UHGV virus genome: UHGV-1558343
From: a virus
DNA: 30,962 nucleotides
Reading direction: 5' to 3' (one strand)
Shown: positions 5,381 through 13,403 of the stretch, in pieces
Position numbering within the stretch: position 1 is the stretch's first letter
Layout: each line of letters starts with the position of its first letter
Program-made: the position numbers and the translations under genes
Notes under the pieces: model-generated
What the model saw: the letters and a program-made list of their open reading frames with translations, nothing else
Database searches by the model: none
Told to the model about the DNA's origin: nothing

Positions 5381-6982
5381 TCAACGTCTAAGCCCCTCAT
5401 ATGGGTTTCCTCTCACTAAGTCTGTGTGAGCACCCATTGATGGTGGCTTGAATAATTTAACTTCGTTAAGACTGTTGAAAGCATCACTGGTAGCATCCAC
5501 TTGGTCATCTTTAGTTTTGCCATCACCACAAAAGCCTTCAAGCTCTTGAAAGTAAGCTTCATTCCAACTACCTCTCAAGACTTTTACAAGTCCAGCTTCA
5601 GAAGCAGCAGAAAATCCCGCAAAGCGGGTAACTTTATCTTTATTTGTTGGTTTAGCTCTTGCACGATAGCCTTTCTCGGCAAGTTTCCTGATGAGGGATG
5701 TTGCGTAGGATTTACCAGCAGCGCCTGGGTCTTGAGGGATAAAAATACCAGTTCGCTTACCGTCACTTTCAGCAGTCAAATTAATTTGTGTTTCGACTCC
5801 AGAGGGTCTATCTCTAAATCTTACTACATCAATGATATAATAGCAACCGTCTTTTTTAGATTTACCCATCTTAACACCTGCTGTCCAGTCTGGATTAGGG
5901 TTAACCTCAGATGGTAAAGTTGCTGCTAAGTCCCATGCTCTAACATCAAATACATCTTCTGGGAGTGAATCAACAATTTCACACCATTGTCTTTGCCAAT
6001 AGTTTGAACCTTCTGCACGAGCCTTCCAGTTACCGAAACGAAGTCTTGCAACGTTTACAGGAGTGTTGTTTTCAAGCTTACCGCGATACTTTGGCTCTAA
6101 GAAGTCAAGAATTGGGTTATCATCAATCGTACCAGAGATGAAGGTGTATGTTTGAGGAATCTCAAGAGGGAACATTTCAAGAATCTTGTCTCTCTCCCAA
6201 TCAGAAACCATCACACCATCATTCATTACATACCAACGAATACGACCACACTTTTCAGGGTCTGGGTAACCTTCTTCATCTAAGAATGGTTCTACCCAAT
6301 CGTAAATAAAGTGGTCTCTGTCTGGGTTCATGGAAATCTTCATGTATGAATCACCTTCAGCACCAGAACGTAGACGGGTTTGTAGGTATGAAATCTGTGA
6401 AGCAGAGAAGTGTGTACCTTCGTCAAAGTAAATAGCTGAGTATTCAATACCCTGATGACCTTCAGCGTGCTTTTCAAGCTCTAGGTAGGTAAACTTGATA
6501 GTTGCCCCAGAAGGGAATGTGATAGTCATTTTCTGCTCGTGAGGAATCCCACCAAACTTACCAAATAGTTTCTTTGCAGCAGGCCATAAACCACCTTGTA
6601 ACTGTGTTGTATTTCGACGGAAATATACAGCATTATAGTTAGGGTCTTCAATAAATCTTAAAGAGTCCATTAACAATGCAGCAGTTTTACCAGCACCAGC
6701 AGCACCACCATAAAGAACCAAGTCAGCATTAGTATTTAAAAAGACCTCTTGAGAACCCGGCTGAGGGGCTACATAGTTCTTATCAGTCATCAATTTAAAG
6801 ATGAGGCGAACTTGGTCTGGTGTGTATCTTAATAAAGTCAGAATTTGAGTTGGAAGGAATTTAGAGGGGTCTTTACCGAATGATTTAATAATTTCTTTTA
6901 CTTCATCAGAAAGCCCCAACTCTCCAGCTAGGACTTTCCTAACATCTTCCACTCGCTTCTGCTTAACAGCATTTAAGTCCAT
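5381..6982 (-). CDS. terminase large subunit
   Basis: Walker A motif GGAAGAGKT in N-terminal ATPase region; about 533 aa; ORF track starts at TTG (6997), ATG at 6980-6982 with GGAGG SD is the likelier start. Confidence 0.85.
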   Translation of the reverse strand: MDLNAVKQKRVEDVRKVLAGELGLSDEVKEIIKSFGKDPSKFLPTQILTLLRYTPDQVRLIFKLMTDKNYVAPQPGSQEVFLNTNADLVLYGGAAGAGKTAALLMDSLRFIEDPNYNAVYFRRNTTQLQGGLWPAAKKLFGKFGGIPHEQKMTITFPSGATIKFTYLELEKHAEGHQGIEYSAIYFDEGTHFSASQISYLQTRLRSGAEGDSYMKISMNPDRDHFIYDWVEPFLDEEGYPDPEKCGRIRWYVMNDGVMVSDWERDKILEMFPLEIPQTYTFISGTIDDNPILDFLEPKYRGKLENNTPVNVARLRFGNWKARAEGSNYWQRQWCEIVDSLPEDVFDVRAWDLAATLPSEVNPNPDWTAGVKMGKSKKDGCYYIIDVVRFRDRPSGVETQINLTAESDGKRTGIFIPQDPGAAGKSYATSLIRKLAEKGYRARAKPTNKDKVTRFAGFSAASEAGLVKVLRGSWNEAYFQELEGFCGDGKTKDDQVDATSDAFNSLNEVKLFKPPSMGAHTDLVRGNPYEGLRR

Positions 6983-7427: not shown

Positions 7428-7503
7428 TGGAGAATCCGAAGGGACTCGAACCCTTATAAACCTGTTTTGCAGACAGGTACATATCCATTTCTGTCACGGA
7501 TTC
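7428..7503 (-). tRNA. tRNA-Cys(GCA)
   Basis: cloverleaf folded by hand; T-loop TTCGAGT, anticodon loop CUGCAAA, 7-bp acceptor stem, CCA encoded. Confidence 0.8.
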
Positions 7504-7507
7504 AAAT

Positions 7508-7600
7508 TGGAGGAAGATACCAGACTTGAACTGGTACACCGATTTCTCAGCTACTGGCAGTTTAGCAAACTGCTCCCTTACCTTTTAGGGTTAATCTTCC
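7508..7600 (-). tRNA. tRNA-Ser(GCU), class II
   Basis: 93 nt; perfect 7-bp acceptor stem GGAAGAT/ATCTTCC; anticodon loop UUGCUAA; long variable arm; CCA encoded. Confidence 0.8.
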
Positions 7601-7601
7601 A

Positions 7602-8336
7602 TTATTTCTGTAATGCGCTCTTCATTTCTGGTGTTGCAATAGTGTCAATCACACCAGTTTTACAAGCATCATCAAACCAGTCTGGTAAGATACCTGCTAA
7701 GAACCCATTGATATTCGTTTTAAGGTACTCTGCAATAAGGGCAGCTTCTTCTTCAATCATCTGCACAACTTCATCTGCATAAGCTGTAATCTTCGAAATA
7801 CCTTCATTAATCTTACTAACAGCTTGGTTAGCTAAATCAGAAATAGTATCAAGACCTTTGTCAATAGCATCTTGTAAGTCACTTAATACATCATTAACAC
7901 CATCTAGTGCGCTGTTAATCGTATCCATAGCTTTTTGACCATACTCTGTAGCAACACCCATAATACCACTAAATGGTGTACAGCCAACTTGCTCCCCTGC
8001 TGCACCCATAACATTAGAATAGCCTTTTGCTACCTGCATACGTGAGGAAAACTCATCAATGGACTTTTGACCATAATCTGTCAGTGTCTTAGTAGTTGAT
8101 GTAGTGCTTGTCAGACTCGTTGTAAAGCTGTTAAGCAGAACTGTTGTAAGTCCAGCAGCAACAAGTTTATCTTTTATTGTAGGGTCTGTTACAGAACTAA
8201 TAGAGCTTACAAGTGATGTAGAGGCAGATACGGTTCCACCGAGAACTGCTGCACCAGTAATAAGTGGGTTAGAAAACCCTTTACCGGTTTTTAAGAGATT
8301 AAAAATCTCCTTACCTTGTTCTGTCATCTCTTTCAT
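7602..8336 (-). CDS. hypothetical Ser/Thr-rich protein embedded in tRNA array
   Basis: ORF 7602..8399 in track; first about 20 codons overlap tRNA-Phe on the same strand, so an internal Met start is likelier; exact start uncertain. Confidence 0.45.
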   Translation of the reverse strand: MKEMTEQGKEIFNLLKTGKGFSNPLITGAAVLGGTVSASTSLVSSISSVTDPTIKDKLVAAGLTTVLLNSFTTSLTSTTSTTKTLTDYGQKSIDEFSSRMQVAKGYSNVMGAAGEQVGCTPFSGIMGVATEYGQKAMDTINSALDGVNDVLSDLQDAIDKGLDTISDLANQAVSKINEGISKITAYADEVVQMIEEEAALIAEYLKTNINGFLAGILPDWFDDACKTGVIDTIATPEMKSALQK

Positions 8337-8352
8337 TAAGCACCTTTGAAAT

Positions 8353-8429
8353 TGGTAGTCCAGTGGGATTTGAACCCTCTTCTCATGTTTTTCAGACACG
8401 CGCTTTAACCATATAAGCTACTTGGACTA
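8353..8429 (-). tRNA. tRNA-Phe(GAA)
   Basis: T-loop TTCAAAT, anticodon loop CUGAAAA; acceptor pairing TAGTCCA/TGGACTA; exact 3' end ambiguous. Confidence 0.7.
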
Positions 8430-8434
8430 TAAAT

Positions 8435-8510
8435 TGGGGTGACCTACGGGATTTGAACCCGTATAGACCATGTTCACAGCATGGGTCATTACCGTTTATG
8501 ATAAGGCCAC
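8435..8510 (-). tRNA. tRNA-His(GUG)
   Basis: anticodon stem CCATG/CATGG, loop CUGUGAA; T-loop TTCAAAT; CCA encoded. Confidence 0.8.
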
Positions 8511-8541
8511 ATTTAAGGACTCTCGTAAGAACCCTTAGAAG

Positions 8542-8617
8542 TGGCAGCGGCATAAGGATTTGAACCTTAATAGGACAGCTTCAGAGACTGTTGCATTGCC
8601 AGTTATGCTATACCGCT
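8542..8617 (-). tRNA. tRNA-Gln(CUG)
   Basis: D-stem GCAT/ATGC, anticodon loop CUCUGAA, T-loop TTCAAAT, CCA encoded. Confidence 0.7.
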
Positions 8618-8622
8618 AAATT

Positions 8623-8701
8623 TGGTACTCCATATCGGATTCGAACCGATACATAACACAGATTTTAAGTCTGGCCTCTCTGCCAATTGGAGTAATGGAG
8701 C
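8623..8701 (-). tRNA. tRNA with anticodon UAA (Leu-type anticodon; short variable arm)
   Basis: T-arm ATCGG/TTCGAAT/CCGAT; anticodon loop CUUAAAA; acceptor GCTCCAT/ATGGAGT; A73; no long variable arm. Confidence 0.6.
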
Positions 8702-8703
8702 AT

Positions 8704-8779
8704 TGGCGGGGGATGTTGGAATTGAACCAACTTCTTCGATTTCAAAGACCGAGGTTTTAACCTTGTAAACTAATCCCCT
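8704..8779 (-). tRNA. tRNA-Gln(UUG)
   Basis: anticodon stem TCGGT/ATCGA, loop CUUUGAA; T-loop TTCAATT; CCA encoded; 1:72 mismatch. Confidence 0.65.
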
Positions 8780-8787
8780 TTAAATCT

Positions 8788-9345
8788 TTACTTTCTCAGT
8801 GGATGAATAAAGAATGCCAACATAACTCTTTCCCTTGAGAATGCTCTTTCTTCTGGGACAACACTTTTAAGTTTCCATCCAACATAAATTCTCCAGTAAA
8901 ACTGTTTACCAAAGACTTTAATTGATGGGATAAAAGCGAATAACCCCCAAGCATTACTGTTCCACATTAGGAGATAACCAGTCTGATTATCTTCAGGGTT
9001 AGAGCTTACGTTGATATTACCTTTCCACTTAGTAACATCTTTTACATCTCTTCCTAATACATGGTAAGAGAAGTTATAAGCTTTGTTTCTCCAGAGCCAT
9101 CCAACTCTCTGCATGTAGACACCCAGCTTACCAATCTTTCTAATCTTAGCCCATCTTTTAACGTGGCCTTCATCACCATCAATTGGGTTGTCATAGGTCT
9201 CCATCCATCTGAATCCAAAAGGTAGATGTCCTTTCTTCTCACTGTAGAATGGAACTACGAAAGGTGCTAAGATAACTGCTAGGGTTGCTGCAAATGGTTC
9301 TAACAAAGCTAAGAAAATCCATGAAACATATTTTAAGTATCTCAT
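8788..9345 (-). CDS. hypothetical protein with N-terminal hydrophobic segment, embedded in tRNA array
   Basis: 185 aa ORF with ATG and AAGAGG SD; N-terminus WIFLALLEPFAATLAVILAPFVVPF is hydrophobic; Trp-rich. Confidence 0.5.
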   Translation of the reverse strand: MRYLKYVSWIFLALLEPFAATLAVILAPFVVPFYSEKKGHLPFGFRWMETYDNPIDGDEGHVKRWAKIRKIGKLGVYMQRVGWLWRNKAYNFSYHVLGRDVKDVTKWKGNINVSSNPEDNQTGYLLMWNSNAWGLFAFIPSIKVFGKQFYWRIYVGWKLKSVVPEERAFSRERVMLAFFIHPLRK

Positions 9346-9365
9346 CTAAATAGCCTCTTAAAAAA

Positions 9366-9441
9366 TTGGTGCAGGATAAGGGATTCGAACCCCTATTAAC
9401 AGCTTCGTAGACTGTTGCTCTATCCATTTGAACTAATCCTG
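9366..9441 (-). tRNA. tRNA-Arg(ACG)
   Basis: acceptor GCAGGAT/ATCCTGC; anticodon loop CUACGAA; T-loop TTCGAAT; CCA encoded. Confidence 0.8.
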
Positions 9442-9540
9442 CTTACCTACGAGAACACCATACAGTTTTTCACAAACTTTGTTTTTACGTCTGTTTAGAT
9501 ATGAAGCTCTAAACTTTTTTGCGATGGACTTATTACTCAT
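9432..9540 (-). CDS. possible small basic protein (35 aa)
   Basis: ATG at 9538-9540 with AGGAG SD; translates MSNKSIAKKFRASYLNRRKNKVCEKLYGVLVGKQD; 3' end overlaps tRNA-Arg by about 10 nt. Confidence 0.3.
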
Positions 9541-9556
9541 AGTGCTCTCCTAAAAT

Positions 9557-9634
9557 TGGTGTTCCAAGACGGATTCGAACCGTCACTAATACAAGGTTTG
9601 AGCTTGCATCCTCTGCCAATTGGGATACTGGAAC
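9557..9634 (-). tRNA. tRNA with anticodon CAA (Leu-type anticodon; short variable arm)
   Basis: acceptor GTTCCAG/TTGGAAC; anticodon stem GCAAG/CTTGT, loop CUCAAAC; T-loop TTCGAAT; A73; CCA encoded. Confidence 0.6.
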
Positions 9635-9635
9635 A

Positions 9636-9710
9636 TGGTACTCACTAAAGGACTTGAACCTTTTTCTTCATCTTGTAAGGGTGATGTTTTACCATATAAA
9701 CTAAGCGAGT
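9636..9710 (-). tRNA. tRNA-Val(UAC), tentative
   Basis: acceptor ACTCGCT/AGTGAGT; anticodon loop CUUACAA with one C-A mismatch in the stem; T-loop TTCAAGT. Confidence 0.6.
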
Positions 9711-9805
9711 GTGAAAGAGGTCTGAAGTTGTGCCGCTAACTCAACTCCGTGGAATTTGTTACGGTCTTCAGTTGACACCAGCGGTCTTTCACTTGACCTC
9801 TGAAT

Positions 9806-9882
9806 TGGTGCTGCTCACAGGACTCGAACCTGCATTTCCATCCTTACAAGGGATGTGTAATAGCCAATTATACGAAAGCAGC
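9806..9882 (-). tRNA. tRNA-Thr(UGU)
   Basis: anticodon stem CATCC/GGATG perfect, loop CUUGUAA; T-loop TTCGAGT; CCA encoded. Confidence 0.8.
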
Positions 9883-9888
9883 ATTATT

Positions 9889-9963
9889 TGGAACATCCAG
9901 AGGGAATCGAACCCTCAACCTCAGTTTGGAAGACTGTAATTTTCCCGTTTAAACTATGGATGC
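9889..9963 (-). tRNA. tRNA-Gly(UCC)
   Basis: anticodon loop CUUCCAA; T-arm GAGGG/TTCGATT/CCCTC; CCA encoded. Confidence 0.75.
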
Positions 9964-9969
9964 ACTAAT

Positions 9970-10045
9970 TGGTGGAGAAGCAGGGAATTGAACCCTGTAC
10001 TTAAGTTTGCAAAACTTATGTTTTAACCATGTAAACTACATCCCC
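9970..10045 (-). tRNA. tRNA-Ala(UGC)
   Basis: D-stem GTTT/AAAC; anticodon stem TAAGT/ACTTA, loop UUUGCAA; T-loop TTCAATT; CCA encoded. Confidence 0.75.
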
Positions 10046-10051
10046 AATGTT

Positions 10052-10127
10052 TGGTACAGGTGGAGGGAATTGAACCCGTCGTCTTACTGATTAAGAGTCA
10101 GCCGCATAACCATTTTGCTACACCTGC
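10052..10127 (-). tRNA. tRNA-Lys(CUU), tentative
   Basis: anticodon stem GCTGA/TCAGT (one GU), loop CUCUUAA; T-loop TTCAATT; CCA encoded. Confidence 0.6.
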
Positions 10128-10134
10128 ATTAATT

Positions 10135-10212
10135 TGGTAGGAGACAAGGGATTCGAACCCTCAAACATCTCGTTCTAAGCGAGATAGGTTTACCAATTAC
10201 CGTCAATCTCCC
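10135..10212 (-). tRNA. tRNA with anticodon UAG (Leu-type anticodon; short variable arm)
   Basis: anticodon stem TCTCG/CGAGA perfect, loop CUUAGAA; T-loop TTCGAAT; A73; CCA encoded; variable region only 5 nt. Confidence 0.6.
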
Positions 10213-10293
10213 ATTAAATCTTTTTAGAGAACTTCTAAGAACCTAAGCAACAAGGTTCCACAACAAGCTGTAATAACCTTAGAAGCCCTCTAA

Positions 10294-10313
10294 AAAGACC
10301 TAAAAAGGTCTTT
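10294..10313. other. AT-rich hairpin inside a 258-nt tRNA-free spacer
   Basis: AAAGACC-TAAAAA-GGTCTTT palindrome; spacer 10213-10470 has no T-loop motif but several other inverted repeats. Confidence 0.4.
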
Positions 10314-10470
10314 GCATAGTCTTGTTTAATCCGGTGACTAGAACCTTTGGAGAGCTTGATACTATCTCTTCTCCGTGACACCTACTAGGTGCTTTATAGT
10401 CGTGCCGTGTACGCCAATACACGAGTAAAAACCGAGCTTGTTAGACGAGCGCGGGAATTAAATCTTATTA

Positions 10471-10560
10471 GGCGGTAAGTAAAGGAGTCGAACCCTCACC
10501 GTATCTCTACAGTGGCAACTGTTTTCAAGACAGTTTGGCTACCATTAGCCGCTACCTACC
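10471..10560 (-). tRNA. tRNA-Ser(UGA), class II
   Basis: 90 nt; anticodon stem ACTGT/ACAGT, loop CUUGAAA; long variable arm; acceptor GGTAGGT/ACTTACC. Confidence 0.75.
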
Positions 10561-10573
10561 CCTAATAAGACTT

Positions 10574-10656
10574 TGGCATGGGACGGAGGAGTTGAACCCC
10601 TTTGAAACGGTGTTGGAAGCCGTTGCTCATGCCTTAGAGTCTTAACATCGTCCCAT
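10574..10656 (-). tRNA. tRNA-Trp(CCA) with enlarged D region
   Basis: perfect acceptor ATGGGAC/GTCCCAT; anticodon loop UUCCAAC; T-loop TTCAACT; about 27 nt between anticodon stem and acceptor where about 20 are expected. Confidence 0.6.
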
Positions 10657-10799
10657 ACTATAATTCGAAGCTTACTGTATTATCTCAACACTGTAAAGCC
10701 CCTTCTCAGATTATTTACATGTTCTGGAAAACATGAGATACAGACCACCTCCCTACAGGAAGACCCGCTAAGGTCGTCTAAGTAATCTGCTAACTAAAT

Positions 10800-10881
10800 T
10801 GGTCGAGGCGGCAGGACTCGAACCCGCATACTCCACTTACTCGGTTAACGGCTGTTTAGAAGACAGCTGAGATACGCCCCG
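10800..10881 (-). tRNA. atypical tRNA-like gene, anticodon UCU (Arg-type); no recognisable D-arm
   Basis: T-arm GCGGG/TTCGAGT/CCTGC; acceptor CGGGGCG/CGCCTCG; anticodon arm GCTGT-CUUCUAA-ACAGC; only 7 nt between acceptor and anticodon stem; 23 nt between anticodon stem and T-stem. Confidence 0.5.
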
Positions 10882-11128
10882 TAATTATCTTTAAAGACTC
10901 TCTTAGAAAGCCCTTAAAGATGCCCACCTTATTAATCATACCGTGGGCTAGTACGCCAAATTCTTTGATGAGGGATTGGAAGACCTCACTGGTGTTTAGC
11001 CTATCAAGCTACTGCCAGAAAAACATTGTCGTTTGCATTTATTTTAAATTTGCAAAATAGACGCTACGCAACGAAAACTAAGGTTACTATAAAGTAGTCA
11101 CATCTCAATGTCAACAACTTTTTGAAAT

Positions 11129-11204
11129 TGGTACTGTGAGAAGGATTTGAACCTTCTGCCTTTCGGTTATCAGCCGAATGCACATCCATATGTGCTTTCA
11201 CAGC
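11129..11204 (-). tRNA. tRNA-Ile(GAU)
   Basis: anticodon stem TTCGG/CCGAA perfect, loop CUGAUAA; T-loop TTCAAAT; CCA encoded. Confidence 0.8.
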
Positions 11205-11683
11205 ATTGTTACCCCTTCGTGTACTTCTCTGTGGCAATTTGCACAAAGCAAGACACACTTATCAACTTCAGACTGCATTGTAGCCAGTGAGTAGTGTTTT
11301 TTACTTACTGTGAAGTCTTTTGTCTTAGGGTCTAAGTGGTGAAACTCTAGAGCCTTTGTGCACCTATTGTAACCACAAATTGAACAACAACCACCCTTGT
11401 AATCAACTAAAGCCTTCTTCAGTCTGTCACGAGACTTTTTAACGTGCAGTGATTTGGCTTTGCTTTTTTCATGATGGGTCTTATGTTTTTTCATGACTCC
11501 ACCTGCAATACATTCGTCACAGTATTTTCTCGCTTTTGGCGTTACCTTTCCGCATGAATGGCAAGAGCCTTCCTGACTTCTCTTTGGGTGTTTCTTGTTG
11601 TTCACTTTTGCAGAACAAGAGCGTGAGCAAAATTTTCCACCTTTAACGGCTTCATTTCCGCAACCTTTGTTAGCACAAATCAT
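11198..11683 (-). CDS. HNH homing endonuclease
   Basis: multiple CxxC pairs plus FHHLDP and CANCHREVH motifs near C-terminus; ATG at 11681-11683 with AGGTGA SD; lies between tRNA genes. Confidence 0.85.
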   Translation of the reverse strand: MICANKGCGNEAVKGGKFCSRSCSAKVNNKKHPKRSQEGSCHSCGKVTPKARKYCDECIAGGVMKKHKTHHEKSKAKSLHVKKSRDRLKKALVDYKGGCCSICGYNRCTKALEFHHLDPKTKDFTVSKKHYSLATMQSEVDKCVLLCANCHREVHEGVTML

Positions 11684-11700
11684 AAGTATCACCTATAAAT

Positions 11701-11777
11701 TGGAGGTTCAGATGGGAATCGAACCCACATTCATAGGGCTTATGAGACCCTTGCATTACCTTATCTGCGACTGAACC
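11701..11777 (-). tRNA. tRNA-Met(CAU) (elongator Met, fMet or Ile-lysidine not distinguishable)
   Basis: acceptor GGTTCAG/CTGAACC perfect; anticodon loop CUCAUAA; T-loop TTCGATT; CCA encoded. Confidence 0.75.
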
Positions 11778-11781
11778 ATAT

Positions 11782-11857
11782 TGGTAGAAGTGGAGGGATT
11801 CGAACCCATCGCCTGTCAGATTAAAAGTCTGCCGCATCACCATTCTGCTACACTTCC
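11782..11857 (-). tRNA. tRNA-Lys(UUU)
   Basis: anticodon loop CUUUUAA; T-arm ATGGG/TTCGAAT/CCCTC; CCA encoded. Confidence 0.7.
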
Positions 11858-11863
11858 ATTAAA

Positions 11864-12001
11864 TTATCTTTGTAGATAAGCTACCCAGACTTGCTTAAGG
11901 TCTGTAGCGATGTGTCTTTTCGGGTTAAATCTAGAATCTACCCTTCCACCTTTGTGGTCGCATACTCACAGGTAAGCTTAATAACTTATCTACAAAGATA
12001 A
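11864..12001. repeat. perfect 17-bp inverted repeat flanking about 100 nt of hairpin-rich spacer
   Basis: TTATCTTTGTAGATAAG at 11864-11880 and its exact reverse complement CTTATCTACAAAGATAA at 11985-12001; each arm is itself palindromic. Confidence 0.7.
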
Positions 12002-12052
12002 TTACCAGACCGTTGTTTATCATCTTAAGTGCTACCATTACACCAACTCGAC

Positions 12053-12101
12053 ATCTGCCGAGTGAAGGAATCGAACCTTCGCCTTTTCTTTACCGGAGAA
12101 A
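12053..12101 (-). pseudogene. tRNA 3' fragment (T-arm plus anticodon arm, anticodon GGU Thr-type); 5' half missing
   Basis: T-arm GAAGG/TTCGATT/CCTTC and anticodon arm TTTCT-CCGGUAA-AGAAA present; no sequence downstream pairs with acceptor 3' strand ACTCGGC; no CCA. Confidence 0.45.
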
Positions 12102-12116
12102 TAGATTGTTTAAGTT

Positions 12117-12143
12117 TTGCTGTAAACGGTCTTCTGTAAATTT
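12117..12143. repeat. tRNA-spacer repeat copy 1 (TTGCTGTAAACGGTCTTCTGTAAATTT)
   Basis: 27-bp element identical to copy at 13048-13074; sits where the 5' half of the tRNA fragment would be. Confidence 0.75.
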
Positions 12144-12202
12144 GTTGAGCCAGACCAAGTTTTAAATTTTTCAAAATTAAATTGGCTTGAAATTTTAAGT
12201 AA

Positions 12203-12227
12203 CTTGCTGTATTTGGTCTTCTGCTCC
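12203..12227. repeat. tRNA-spacer repeat, degenerate copy
   Basis: CTTGCTGTATTTGGTCTTCTGCTCC shares the TTGCTGTA..GGTCTTCTG core. Confidence 0.55.
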
Positions 12228-12284
12228 TTTAAAGGATACTCGTAAGAACCCTTTAATGGAGGGGCTAAATAGCCCTCTCAAAAT

Positions 12285-12360
12285 TGGCGAGGTATGCGAG
12301 AATCGAACTCGCGGCTCAGGAGAGACAATCCCGTATTTTACCCGTCTAAACTAATACCCC
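12285..12360 (-). tRNA. tRNA-Asp(GUC)
   Basis: anticodon loop UUGUCUC; T-arm GCGAG/TTCGATT/CTCGC; acceptor GGGGTAT/ATACCTC; CCA encoded. Confidence 0.7.
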
Positions 12361-12364
12361 AAAT

Positions 12365-12793
12365 TCATGTACCATTTCTTAGATACTTCTTCCTACGTCT
12401 TTCTGGACTATAGTTTCTTCTACTCTCAGCATTCTTAGCCAGCCTACACTCATCGCATCTACAGCCTTTAAAATAGCTATACGCAGTTCCGTGTTTAATT
12501 GTTTTATGTTTTCTTTCACTTATCTGTGCTGGTCTTGCTGCTTTCATGTTACATTTAAGATGACTATAAGAAATATTATCTAGTGAAAAGAAAAGCTCTT
12601 TTGCATTCTCACTATGTCTCCACGGAATCTTATGCTCGATAGAGAAATCATCCCTAGTCATTTCTTTTCCGCACTGAAAACATCTATTTTGATTTGTCTT
12701 ACATATAAAATCGAATAGCAAATCTTTTACTAGTCTGTTTTGTGCAGTTCCCAAACTCATACCAAGTTGTGATTTGTATACTTCATCTCTCAT
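12365..12793 (-). CDS. HNH homing endonuclease
   Basis: CFQCG ... EHKIPW ... HLKCN motif set; C-terminal Cys/Arg-rich segment GCRCDECR; ORF track start overlaps tRNA-Tyr so internal ATG at 12791-12793 is proposed. Confidence 0.8.
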   Translation of the reverse strand: MRDEVYKSQLGMSLGTAQNRLVKDLLFDFICKTNQNRCFQCGKEMTRDDFSIEHKIPWRHSENAKELFFSLDNISYSHLKCNMKAARPAQISERKHKTIKHGTAYSYFKGCRCDECRLAKNAESRRNYSPERRRKKYLRNGT

Positions 12794-12815
12794 AACTAAG
12801 TATCTCGCTAAGTGT

Positions 12816-12903
12816 TGGTGTGCCGTGTAGGAGTCGAACCTACCGAGTCTCAATGACAAGGGATTTACAGTCCCCACCGCTACCATCTACGGGATAACGA
12901 CAC
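12816..12903 (-). tRNA. tRNA-Tyr(GUA), class II
   Basis: 88 nt; anticodon loop CUGUAAA; long variable region; acceptor GTGTCGT/ACGGCAC; CCA encoded. Confidence 0.75.
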
Positions 12904-12915
12904 ATTTCAATTTTG

Positions 12916-12989
12916 CGGTTAGTCAGGGATTCGAACCCTGTGCCATTCGCTTAACAGGCGACCGCACATACCTTATGTGCTTCCTAACC
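12916..12989 (-). tRNA. tRNA-Asn(GUU)
   Basis: D-arm GCAC-9nt-GTGC; anticodon loop CUGUUAA; T-loop TTCGAAT; CCA not encoded. Confidence 0.75.
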
Positions 12990-13047
12990 ATGTTTAGTAT
13001 TACCAGACCGTATCTTTCAATTTTTTCCGCTAAAAATTTAATAAATA

Positions 13048-13074
13048 TTGCTGTAAACGGTCTTCTGTAAATTT
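13048..13074. repeat. tRNA-spacer repeat copy 2 (TTGCTGTAAACGGTCTTCTGTAAATTT)
   Basis: exact 27-bp duplicate of 12117-12143; abuts the 3' end of the tRNA at 13074. Confidence 0.75.
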
Positions 13075-13150
13075 GGAGGCGGGTGCAGGAGTCGAACCTG
13101 CCGATACCATGCTAATGAGACATGTGAGACGCCCTTTCTCTATACCCGCA
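13074..13150 (-). tRNA. tRNA with anticodon CAU (Met or Ile-lysidine), tentative
   Basis: anticodon loop CUCAUUA; D-arm GAGA-7nt-TCTC; acceptor with 1:72 mismatch; CCA encoded. Confidence 0.6.
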
Positions 13151-13213
13151 ATTCTTAATGACCAGACCAAATCTCTTCTTTGTCCGATTTACCTTCAGAT
13201 GAATAAGATTAAG

Positions 13214-13240
13214 TTTGCTGTAATTGGTCTTCTGTCAAAA
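13214..13240. repeat. tRNA-spacer repeat, degenerate copy
   Basis: TTTGCTGTAATTGGTCTTCTGTCAAAA directly beside the 3' end of tRNA-Glu. Confidence 0.6.
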
Positions 13241-13241
13241 C

Positions 13242-13319
13242 TGGCGTTCCAGAAGGGATTTGAACCCTCAGATATCCACTTTGAAAGAGTGGTGACTATA
13301 CCATTTTGTCTACTGGAAC
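13242..13319 (-). tRNA. tRNA-Glu(UUC)
   Basis: perfect acceptor GTTCCAG/CTGGAAC; anticodon stem CCACT/AGTGG perfect, loop CUUUCAA; CCA encoded. Confidence 0.8.
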
Positions 13320-13326
13320 ATTAATT

Positions 13327-13403
13327 TGGTCTCTGTTGGAGGACTTGAACCTCCGGCCTTACCGCCCCAAACGGAACGCTCTACCAAGCTGAGCTAAACA
13401 GAG
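13327..13403 (-). tRNA. tRNA-Pro(UGG)
   Basis: classic D-arm GCTCAGCTTGGTAGAGC; anticodon loop UUUGGGG; T-loop TTCAAGT; perfect acceptor; CCA encoded. Confidence 0.8.

Follow-up and report, generated by a model that had tools for sequence, protein, structure and literature searches.

Three short-armed tRNAs with leucine anticodons in a Felix O1-like phage array are probably type I leucine tRNAs

The virus genome UHGV-1558343, of which the whole stretch of DNA analysed here (30,962 nucleotides, nt) is called the window, raises the question of what is carried by three transfer RNAs (tRNAs) that have the leucine (Leu) anticodons UAA, CAA and UAG and lack the long variable arm, which textbooks and the synthetase literature treat as fixed in bacterial tRNA-Leu. 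The original prediction, made by a model from the sequence, left three alternatives: unconventional tRNA-Leu, tRNAs charged with something else that recode Leu codons, or a wrong hand-fold. Our results favor the first, although leucylation itself is reasoned from sequence, and we put the probability at about 0.8 that the three loci code for functional leucine tRNAs in a short-arm (type I) form, charged by the host's leucyl-tRNA synthetase (LeuRS) and topping up its Leu-tRNA pool. The genes, their fold, identity elements, conservation, covariation, the Leu meaning of their codons and their distribution are directly supported. The three genes are as follows.

8623..8701, minus strand: tRNA-Leu(UAA), short-arm (type I), 79 nt including CCA; ARAGORN, Rfam (47.5 bits) and position parse
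9557..9634, minus strand: tRNA-Leu(CAA), short-arm (type I), 78 nt including CCA; ARAGORN, Rfam (44.0 bits) and position parse
10135..10212, minus strand: tRNA-Leu(UAG), short-arm (type I), 78 nt including CCA; ARAGORN, Rfam (44.5 bits, in a shifted register) and position parse

The original prediction had placed tRNAs with these anticodons at the same coordinates, and ARAGORN returned them exactly, with matches to Rfam RF00005 above the gathering score of 29 for all three (E = 2e-7 to 2e-6 for the whole window) and the same anticodon register in both programs. The two programs confirm the fold, so a wrong hand-fold can be set aside. With positions counted both back from the 3' end and outward from the anticodon, the variable regions are GUUAUGU in the UAA tRNA (7 nt), AUUAGU in the CAA tRNA (6 nt) and UGUUU in the UAG tRNA (5 nt), and all three tRNAs have A73, both as had been claimed; an encoded CCA follows in each. 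The description of the stems as good also holds, with acceptor stems of 7 base pairs (bp; G1.U72 in the UAA and UAG tRNAs, C2-G71 in the UAA tRNA), T stems of 5 bp and anticodon stems of 5 bp, apart from a single C27.U43 mismatch in the UAA tRNA. U33 and a 7-nt anticodon loop are retained throughout (CUUAAAA for UAA, CUCAAAC for CAA and CUUAGAA for UAG), and the D loop is AAUUGGCAGA in the UAA and CAA tRNAs and AAUUGGUAAA in the UAG tRNA.

The UAG tRNA is irregular in its 5' half, where one additional nt between the acceptor stem and A14 leaves the D stem bulged or mismatched. Because of this extra nt the generic Rfam model slips one base at the 5' end and shifts the acceptor register; it is the ARAGORN register, not that of Rfam, that yields A73-CCA. 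The Felix O1 reference record annotates all three genes as tRNA-Leu, and the original Felix O1 genome paper gave them Cove scores of 52.2, 46.2 and 57.9 with no remark on their shape.

None of the three has the variable region of more than 10 nt with a stem-loop that marks a class II tRNA, and each has a Leu anticodon (NAG or YAA) with a variable loop of about 5 nt, the combination found in type I tRNA-Leu. The window itself holds ordinary long-arm tRNAs that serve as internal comparators, listed here with the length of the variable region (V).

7508..7600, minus strand: tRNA-Ser(GCU), ordinary long-arm, 93 nt, V = 21; ARAGORN and position parse
10471..10560, minus strand: tRNA-Ser(UGA), ordinary long-arm, 90 nt, V = 20; ARAGORN and position parse
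12816..12903, minus strand: tRNA-Tyr(GUA), ordinary long-arm, 88 nt, V = 15; ARAGORN and position parse

Even with the Rfam search of the whole window loosened to E <= 1, no other tRNA-Leu appeared, and the published Felix O1 tRNA list has these three as its sole Leu genes, in agreement with the earlier statement that no class II tRNA-Leu stands elsewhere in the array. Neither a divergent anticodon register nor an overlooked class II tRNA-Leu, the two outcomes named beforehand as contradicting the prediction, came to light.

The enzyme of Escherichia coli reads neither the anticodon nor the long arm of tRNA-Leu, and the elements reported for it are A73, U8-A14, the A15-U48 Levitt pair, G18G19, A20a and the elbow contacts (PMC9976931, PMC6614811). 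At the sequence level, U8-A14, A15-U48, G18G19 and A20a are present in all three phage tRNAs, and the T loop UUCGAAU, also common to the three, matches the elbow contacts G18:U55, G19:C56 and U54:A58. Position 47n, an unpaired base at the arm's foot whose placement also belongs to the identity set, is without a direct counterpart in the armless phage tRNAs, which have 5-7 unpaired nt instead. The D-loop motif AAYUGGYANA occurs in 3/3 Leu tRNAs and in 0/22 other tRNAs of the window, and in 46/1431 (3%) non-Leu tRNAs of the viral loci that we collected.

The identity elements of other synthetases point the same way. The 3:70 pairs of the trio are U-A, U-A and G-C, so that the G3:U70 pair expected of an alanyl-tRNA synthetase substrate is absent; the short arm and A73 do not agree with the long arm and G73 of a substrate of seryl-tRNA synthetase (SerRS); and the anticodons, U/C34-A35-A/G36, fit no anticodon-reading synthetase under the identity rules summarised in PMC9976931. 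By elimination, the trio carries no other synthetase's identity set, and only Leu fits. A nearest-neighbour test over 57 core positions, which is weak since its pool is biased towards Leu, placed Leu at 26-31 of the top 50 neighbours, compared with about 23% of the pool. Isotype models of tRNAscan-SE, a check proposed along with the original prediction, have been applied in published work to the close relative Mooglevirus Sf14, and they rank Leu top for its three Leu tRNAs, which are nearly identical to those of the window (60.2, 49.1 and 67.4), with a thin margin for UAG. The anticodon loops of Sf14 are those of the window trio but for one base in the UAA tRNA, and in sister Moogleviruses the UAA gene is 98.7% identical (Sf13, Sf16 and Sf17) and the CAA gene 100% identical (Sf19).

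Since A73 and the core and elbow elements described for the E. coli enzyme are all present in the trio, the host enzyme most likely charges them with leucine. The LeuRS of the host, E. coli or Salmonella, would recognise A73 together with the D/T elbow and core while ignoring the anticodon and the arm; the arm would be dispensable in Leu because LeuRS does not need it. Bacterial tyrosyl-tRNA synthetase (TyrRS) does read the long arm. SerRS reads it as well (PMC9976931), and the phage Ser and Tyr tRNAs would keep their arms because these two enzymes need them. Activity persists in E. coli tRNA-Leu variants that lack the long arm, according to the account of Larkin 2002 given in PMC9976931. Once charged, the UAA tRNA would decode UUA and UUG, the CAA tRNA UUG, and the UAG tRNA CUA and its wobble partners. 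What we infer here is aminoacylation by the LeuRS of the host, employment on the ribosome, and why the arm was lost.

Codon use in the window is in keeping with such a supplement to the host Leu-tRNA pool during infection, for which UUA, UUG and CUA would be the codons of interest in a phage with a G+C content of 39%, where they are common. Among the Leu codons of the window open reading frames (ORFs), UUA makes up 26.5%, CUU 26.4%, UUG 15.3%, CUG 13.7%, CUA 11.8% and CUC 6.3%, and the shares of UUA, UUG and CUA mean that the three tRNAs would directly read 54% of them.

The same codons allowed us to weigh the second alternative, in which the trio is charged with an amino acid other than Leu and recodes UUA, UUG or CUA in the proteins of the phage. 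Two points would agree with recoding: the tRNAs of 17 other amino acids share the class I shape, and the isotype scores of the Sf14 UAG tRNA for Lys and Ile2 come near that for Leu. However, when the terminase large subunit was aligned with 70 homologues of 40-46% identity, its UUA, UUG and CUA sites were indistinguishable from its CUU and CUC sites: in a small comparison of 19 sites with 14 (the sole CTG, the first codon of the ORF, was left out), the mean Leu fraction in the homologues was 0.44 and 0.47, respectively (Mann-Whitney p = 0.70), against a background Leu frequency of 0.05 in columns with a non-Leu query residue. Leu was the top homologue residue for each codon (UUA 0.52, UUG 0.23 and CUA 0.55). 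Because these sites align with Leu in distant homologues, recoding is without support, and within the limits of this small sample we reject it. The trio also lacks G3:U70, G73, a long arm or a match to any anticodon-reading synthetase under the rules in PMC9976931, and recoding would be ambiguous because host Leu tRNAs decode the same codons. Taken together, the probability of recoding is next to negligible.

More than 200 Felix O1-like phages match the 2.3 kb around the Leu genes at 94-97% identity. The hosts of these relatives (genus Felixounavirus, subfamily Ounavirinae) are E. coli, Salmonella, Shigella and Citrobacter. Against surroundings that are mostly 90-99% identical, 216/264 phage records have a UAA gene of 100% identity; the CAA gene is at least 99% identical in 160/303, and the UAG gene exists as two alleles that are about 89% identical. 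The UAG allele of Salmonella phage FG1m has an exchanged anticodon stem in which three pairs show double-compensatory changes and there is one mismatch. Purifying selection evidently acts on the Leu genes.

FG1m also has a chimeric Leu tRNA (locus L004 of our collection, 5999-6076) that joins the 5' part of the CAA gene to the 3' part of the UAA gene. The junction lies in the GGUUCGAAUCCG T loop common to both genes and removes a tRNA-Arg, the DUF7338 ORF, a tRNA-Gln(UUG) and most of the tRNA-Leu(UAA); the T and acceptor stems of the hybrid each contain a single mismatch.

Short-arm Leu tRNAs are not confined to this group. Cultured-phage examples, reached by BLAST with the three window tRNAs, include Aeromonas phage AhP_Mru1 (Demerecviridae; Leu UAG, CAA and UAA, 77 nt each), Lactobacillus phage LpeD (Herelleviridae; Leu UAG, UAA and CAA, 74-77 nt) and the T5-like coliphage SP15 (Tequintavirus; Leu UAA and UAG, 77 nt), and the full UAG/CAA/UAA trio is found again in three unrelated phage groups. 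Covariation was counted on position-defined cores of 161 distinct short-arm Leu tRNAs from viruses, and sliding or shuffling the partners served as controls. Standard pairs fill 92% of the cloverleaf cells, compared with 44% for slid and 53% for shuffled partners, and each cloverleaf pair shows 3-6 pair types; nearly all non-standard cells fall at 13:22, which is unpaired as in tRNA-Leu.

The conserved positions of this set describe a core of its own. Outside the search pattern, A73 is found in 154/162 (95%) of the viral short-arm Leu tRNAs, U48 in 95% and U8 in 96%, and C2-G71 is predominant, as it is in long-arm viral Leu. The two forms differ elsewhere: 26:44 is purine:purine (GA, AG or AA) in the short-arm set and G:U or A:C in long-arm viral Leu, A9 (49%) contrasts with long-arm G9 (92%), C13 with its absence (48% and 0%), and U45 (48%) with long-arm G45 (84%). 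Differences this systematic show that the short-arm genes are not long-arm genes with a fresh deletion. The short-arm core has settled in a class I-like arrangement in which the Leu elbow and discriminator are kept.

With conservation and covariation at hand, the charging of the trio by the host LeuRS can be weighed against the view that the genes are tRNA-shaped but stand outside translation, as uncharged decoys, regulators or decaying pseudogenes. Several observations speak against our reading. In vitro, charging of the Streptomyces coelicolor type I tRNA-Leu(CAA) by the E. coli LeuRS failed, and the enzyme was called type II-only (PMC6614811); the same group reported that its leucine-specific domain favours tRNAs with a large variable loop. 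The Leu score of the Sf14 UAG tRNA (67.4) is barely above those for Ile2 (65.7) and Lys (63.4), and the UAG tRNA of the window has an irregular D arm and A37 where the host CUN-reading tRNA-Leu has G37, the m1G37 site. The failed charging would also fit a role outside translation, as would the label tRNA-OTHER given to two of the genes in some GenBank records and the Rfam scores of the trio, below those of every other class I-length tRNA in the array. FG1m, which has lost the UAA gene and has the CAA/UAA chimera in its stead, would fit such a role as well, since not all three genes can then be indispensable. Decoys or pseudogenes, however, are at odds with near-perfect conservation over hundreds of genomes, with compensatory changes and strong covariation, with the retention of A73, the encoded CCA, U33 and a 7-nt loop with Leu anticodons, and with the recurrence of the trio in unrelated phages, and we regard such a role as very unlikely. 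As to the failed charging, the S. coelicolor tRNA has the variable loop ACAGC and C48, while the phage trio has U48; C48 may explain the failure, with U48 being the partner of A15 that the enzyme is reported to need.

How common the short form is was surveyed with a pattern made of a Leu-type D loop, an NAR anticodon and GUUCGA, with a spacing that allows both arm lengths. The first 120 stretches per scan were taken from IMG/VR and from a set of one bacterial genome per species, which gives a comparison of like with like and no census. In IMG/VR there were 52 short matches (V = 5-7), 88 long (V = 10-18) and none in between, so that 52/140 (37%) were short; the bacterial genomes gave 4 short and 117 long (4/121, 3%; Fisher p = 2e-12). 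The four bacterial short matches comprise a single chromosomal Leu(UAA) in each of Gordonia and Herbiconiux, a Planctomycetota tandem of three, and one that is not a tRNA. Together with the S. coelicolor type I tRNA-Leu(CAA) (PMC6614811), the Gordonia and Herbiconiux genes show that the original prediction overstated its premise in calling the long arm universal in bacterial tRNA-Leu. ARAGORN on the collected viral loci found 66 short-arm and 124 long-arm Leu tRNAs, with a short-arm share of 43% in loci with at least 5 tRNAs and of 3/42 in loci with at most 2; of the Ser and Tyr tRNAs, only 2/120 and 2/52, respectively, were short. Short-arm Leu is common in phage tRNA clusters and rare in bacterial genomes.

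The Planctomycetota tandem, in the metagenome-assembled genome contig JBCCHQ010000007.1 (L285, 3550-3912), consists of short-arm Leu CAG, UAA and GAG followed by a 100-nt tRNA-Tyr; although binned as bacterial, this segment may be viral or a prophage.

Why phages so often have the short form is a separate matter; the loss could be neutral, under a deletion bias, or could bring an advantage, for instance evasion of a host factor. In the adaptive version, the short arm would evade a host factor for which the long arm is a handle, be it a tRNA-targeting defence nuclease or toxin, or mis-serylation by SerRS, to which the host long-arm Leu tRNAs would still be exposed; this version is about why the architecture exists and does not conflict with Leu charging. 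The viral enrichment, the concentration of short-arm Leu in arrays and the recurrence in unrelated phage families are consistent with it. It is known that changes in sequence let phage tRNAs evade anticodon nucleases (PMC10264068), and human Schlafens are reported to select type II tRNAs. We know of no bacterial nuclease that selects long-arm tRNAs, though, and the phage Ser and Tyr tRNAs keep their arm, so that such a pressure is not escaped for them; deletion bias and the lack of a LeuRS constraint explain the pattern equally well. We therefore consider adaptive loss unlikely. A bacterial Schlafen was considered as a long-arm-specific nuclease and dropped, the one that has been studied cleaving mainly tRNA-Lys, Met and Ala, not type II tRNAs.

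A wider proposal brings these strands together: short-arm tRNA-Leu would be a distinct, mainly phage architecture, a coherent subclass with its own core signature (R26:R44, A9, C13, U45, U48 and A73), spreading among the tRNA arrays of phages that are unrelated and whose hosts are Gram-negative, Gram-positive or actinobacterial, kept for an advantage of arm loss such as escape from a host factor gripping the arm, and still charged in vivo by ordinary LeuRS of bacteria, even by the E. coli enzyme that was called type II-only. In this full form the proposal is speculative and somewhat unlikely.

The array in which the three Leu genes lie was called by ARAGORN on the whole window, and every one of its tRNA genes is on the minus strand. 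It also holds conserved ORFs.

7428..13403, minus strand: tRNA array, 25 genes including the three Leu; ARAGORN and Rfam; small ORFs in between; syntenic with the Felix O1 array
7602-8399, minus strand: conserved DUF7217 ORF within the array; Pfam E = 2.5e-90
8788-9345, minus strand: conserved DUF7338 ORF within the array; Pfam E = 3e-61
12365-12886, minus strand: ORF of 173 amino acids, weakly matching the HNH endonuclease family (PF01844) at E = 3.5e-4, which is just under the cut-off

In Felix O1, tRNA-Asp and tRNA-Tyr are only 5 nt apart. The window has the HNH-like ORF between them, with its listed start inside the tRNA-Tyr gene (12816-12903), and a homing-endonuclease insertion is probable. 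No aminoacyl-tRNA synthetase gene was evident in the window, where five of the array ORFs were scanned against Pfam, nor in the Felix O1 region shown. Between 10561 and 11128 the array has about 570 nt with neither a tRNA nor an ORF of at least 80 amino acids, and the sole match there is weakly like transfer-messenger RNA (10883-11072, 15 bits, E = 0.019) and probably due to chance; comparable gaps in phage T5 hold stable RNAs of unknown function.

The collected viral loci contain other tRNAs of unusual form. Some tRNA-Asn(GUU) with G73 have a variable region of 11-17 nt (L014 1175-1258; L045 10445-10525, minus strand; L063 2449-2535, minus strand; L065 3766-3851; L094 896-981; L133 1523-1610), and Cys and Thr tRNAs with similarly long variable regions were seen, so that phages show arm gain in class I isotypes beside arm loss in Leu. 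Another recurrent viral tRNA has the anticodon UAU (Ile, AUA codon), a length of 90-94 nt, A73 and a perfect acceptor stem; the window has none, and the loci are these.

tRNA with anticodon UAU: L003 4296-4387; L014 4469-4560; L029 4203-4294 (minus strand); L036 264-354; L063 582-674 (minus strand); L072 4722-4815
tRNA with anticodon UAU, remaining loci: L076 2342-2432; L088 8274-8365 (minus strand); L118 4675-4766; L166 11311-11401; L171 7547-7637 (minus strand); L193 4684-4773

Its variable region of 21-25 nt has an apparent stem of 5-6 bp and a 7-nt loop, CAGAUAA, CAGAUUA, UAGAUGA or UAGAUAG, which resembles the anticodon loop of tRNA-Ile(GAU) (CUGAUAA in the window) with the exception of position 33. 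This arm might be a handle for charging by isoleucyl-tRNA synthetase, and a literature search gave no description of a UAU-anticodon tRNA with an Ile-like variable loop. In AhP_Mru1, a tRNA whose anticodon is UCA bears a suppressor annotation (L002 796-869), and LpeD has one that ARAGORN reads with a 4-base anticodon, uuug (L003 5574-5645).

Although the genes have been annotated for two decades, their architecture, core signature and prevalence in phage arrays appear to be new, as we found no description of them in the open-access literature. In 2019, LeuRS had been reported to charge short-arm tRNA-Leu only in human mitochondria and S. coelicolor (PMC6614811). If the trio is charged in vivo, enterobacterial LeuRS accepts type I substrates, and the 161 distinct sequences would define the real needs of the enzyme. 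Phage arrays, which lose the arm in Leu and not in Ser or Tyr, would then amount to a natural experiment on why class II tRNAs retain it. Analyses of phage codon supply can undercount Leu tRNAs, because pipelines sometimes label such genes tRNA-OTHER, and short-arm Leu tRNAs could be compact scaffolds for engineered suppressors.

Among the known systems close enough for comparison is the tRNA-Leu of the host. E. coli leuZ (UAA), leuX (CAA) and leuW (UAG) have the same anticodons as the phage trio and share A73, U8-A14 and A15-U48, and when they are aligned with the trio their 85-87 nt leave one gap of 8-10 nt, exactly at the variable arm. Both sets have the D loop AAU(U/C)GG(U/C)AGA with G18G19 and A20a in like positions, a 3-bp D stem (10:25, 11:24 and 12:23) followed by an unpaired 13:22, and similar T loops (UUCGAAU/UUCAAGU); leuZ and the phage UAA tRNA further have G1.U72 and C2-G71 in common. 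They differ in that the host tRNAs have a variable hairpin of 13-15 nt and the trio 5-7 unpaired nt ending in U48, and in that the phage UAA and CAA tRNAs have A9, C13 and U45, the short-arm core pattern, unlike E. coli tRNA-Leu. The anticodon loops of the trio have C32 and those of E. coli U32, with A37 in the phage UAG tRNA in place of G37.

Phage T5 is also a coliphage with a large tRNA array, and its Leu(UAG) has a D loop of the type found here (AACUGGUAGA) and A73, but it keeps a 13-nt variable arm and is 85 nt long, whereas the window trio is short-armed. Origin of the short form by simple deletion from such a T5-type long-arm gene was considered and could not be upheld: the Leu(UAG) genes of T5 and SP15 share the Ala-Leu position and are too divergent to show a deletion.

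Engineered armless E. coli tRNA-Leu, as Larkin 2002 is reported in PMC9976931, is leucylated and edited if A73 and the D/T contacts are intact, a set that the trio keeps; those variants are laboratory deletions of a host tRNA, whereas the phage genes are natural and conserved, with a core that has been re-tuned. S. coelicolor offers another natural case in its type I tRNA-Leu(CAA), with a 5-nt variable loop, which is the minimum length for it (Fan et al. 2019, PMC6614811); this tRNA exists beside long-arm Leu tRNAs, and its U8-A14 matters for charging (PMC6614811). Its LeuRS, however, has a specialised leucine-specific domain and does not use A73, while the trio has A73 and must work with an enterobacterial LeuRS. 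Animal mitochondrial tRNA-Leu(UUR) likewise has a short variable region, with A73 and A14 as identity elements (PMC9976931), but it is floppy and rich in mismatches and has a dedicated mitochondrial LeuRS that also touches the anticodon stem, whereas the elbow of the phage tRNAs, with G18G19 and UUCGAAU, is canonical.

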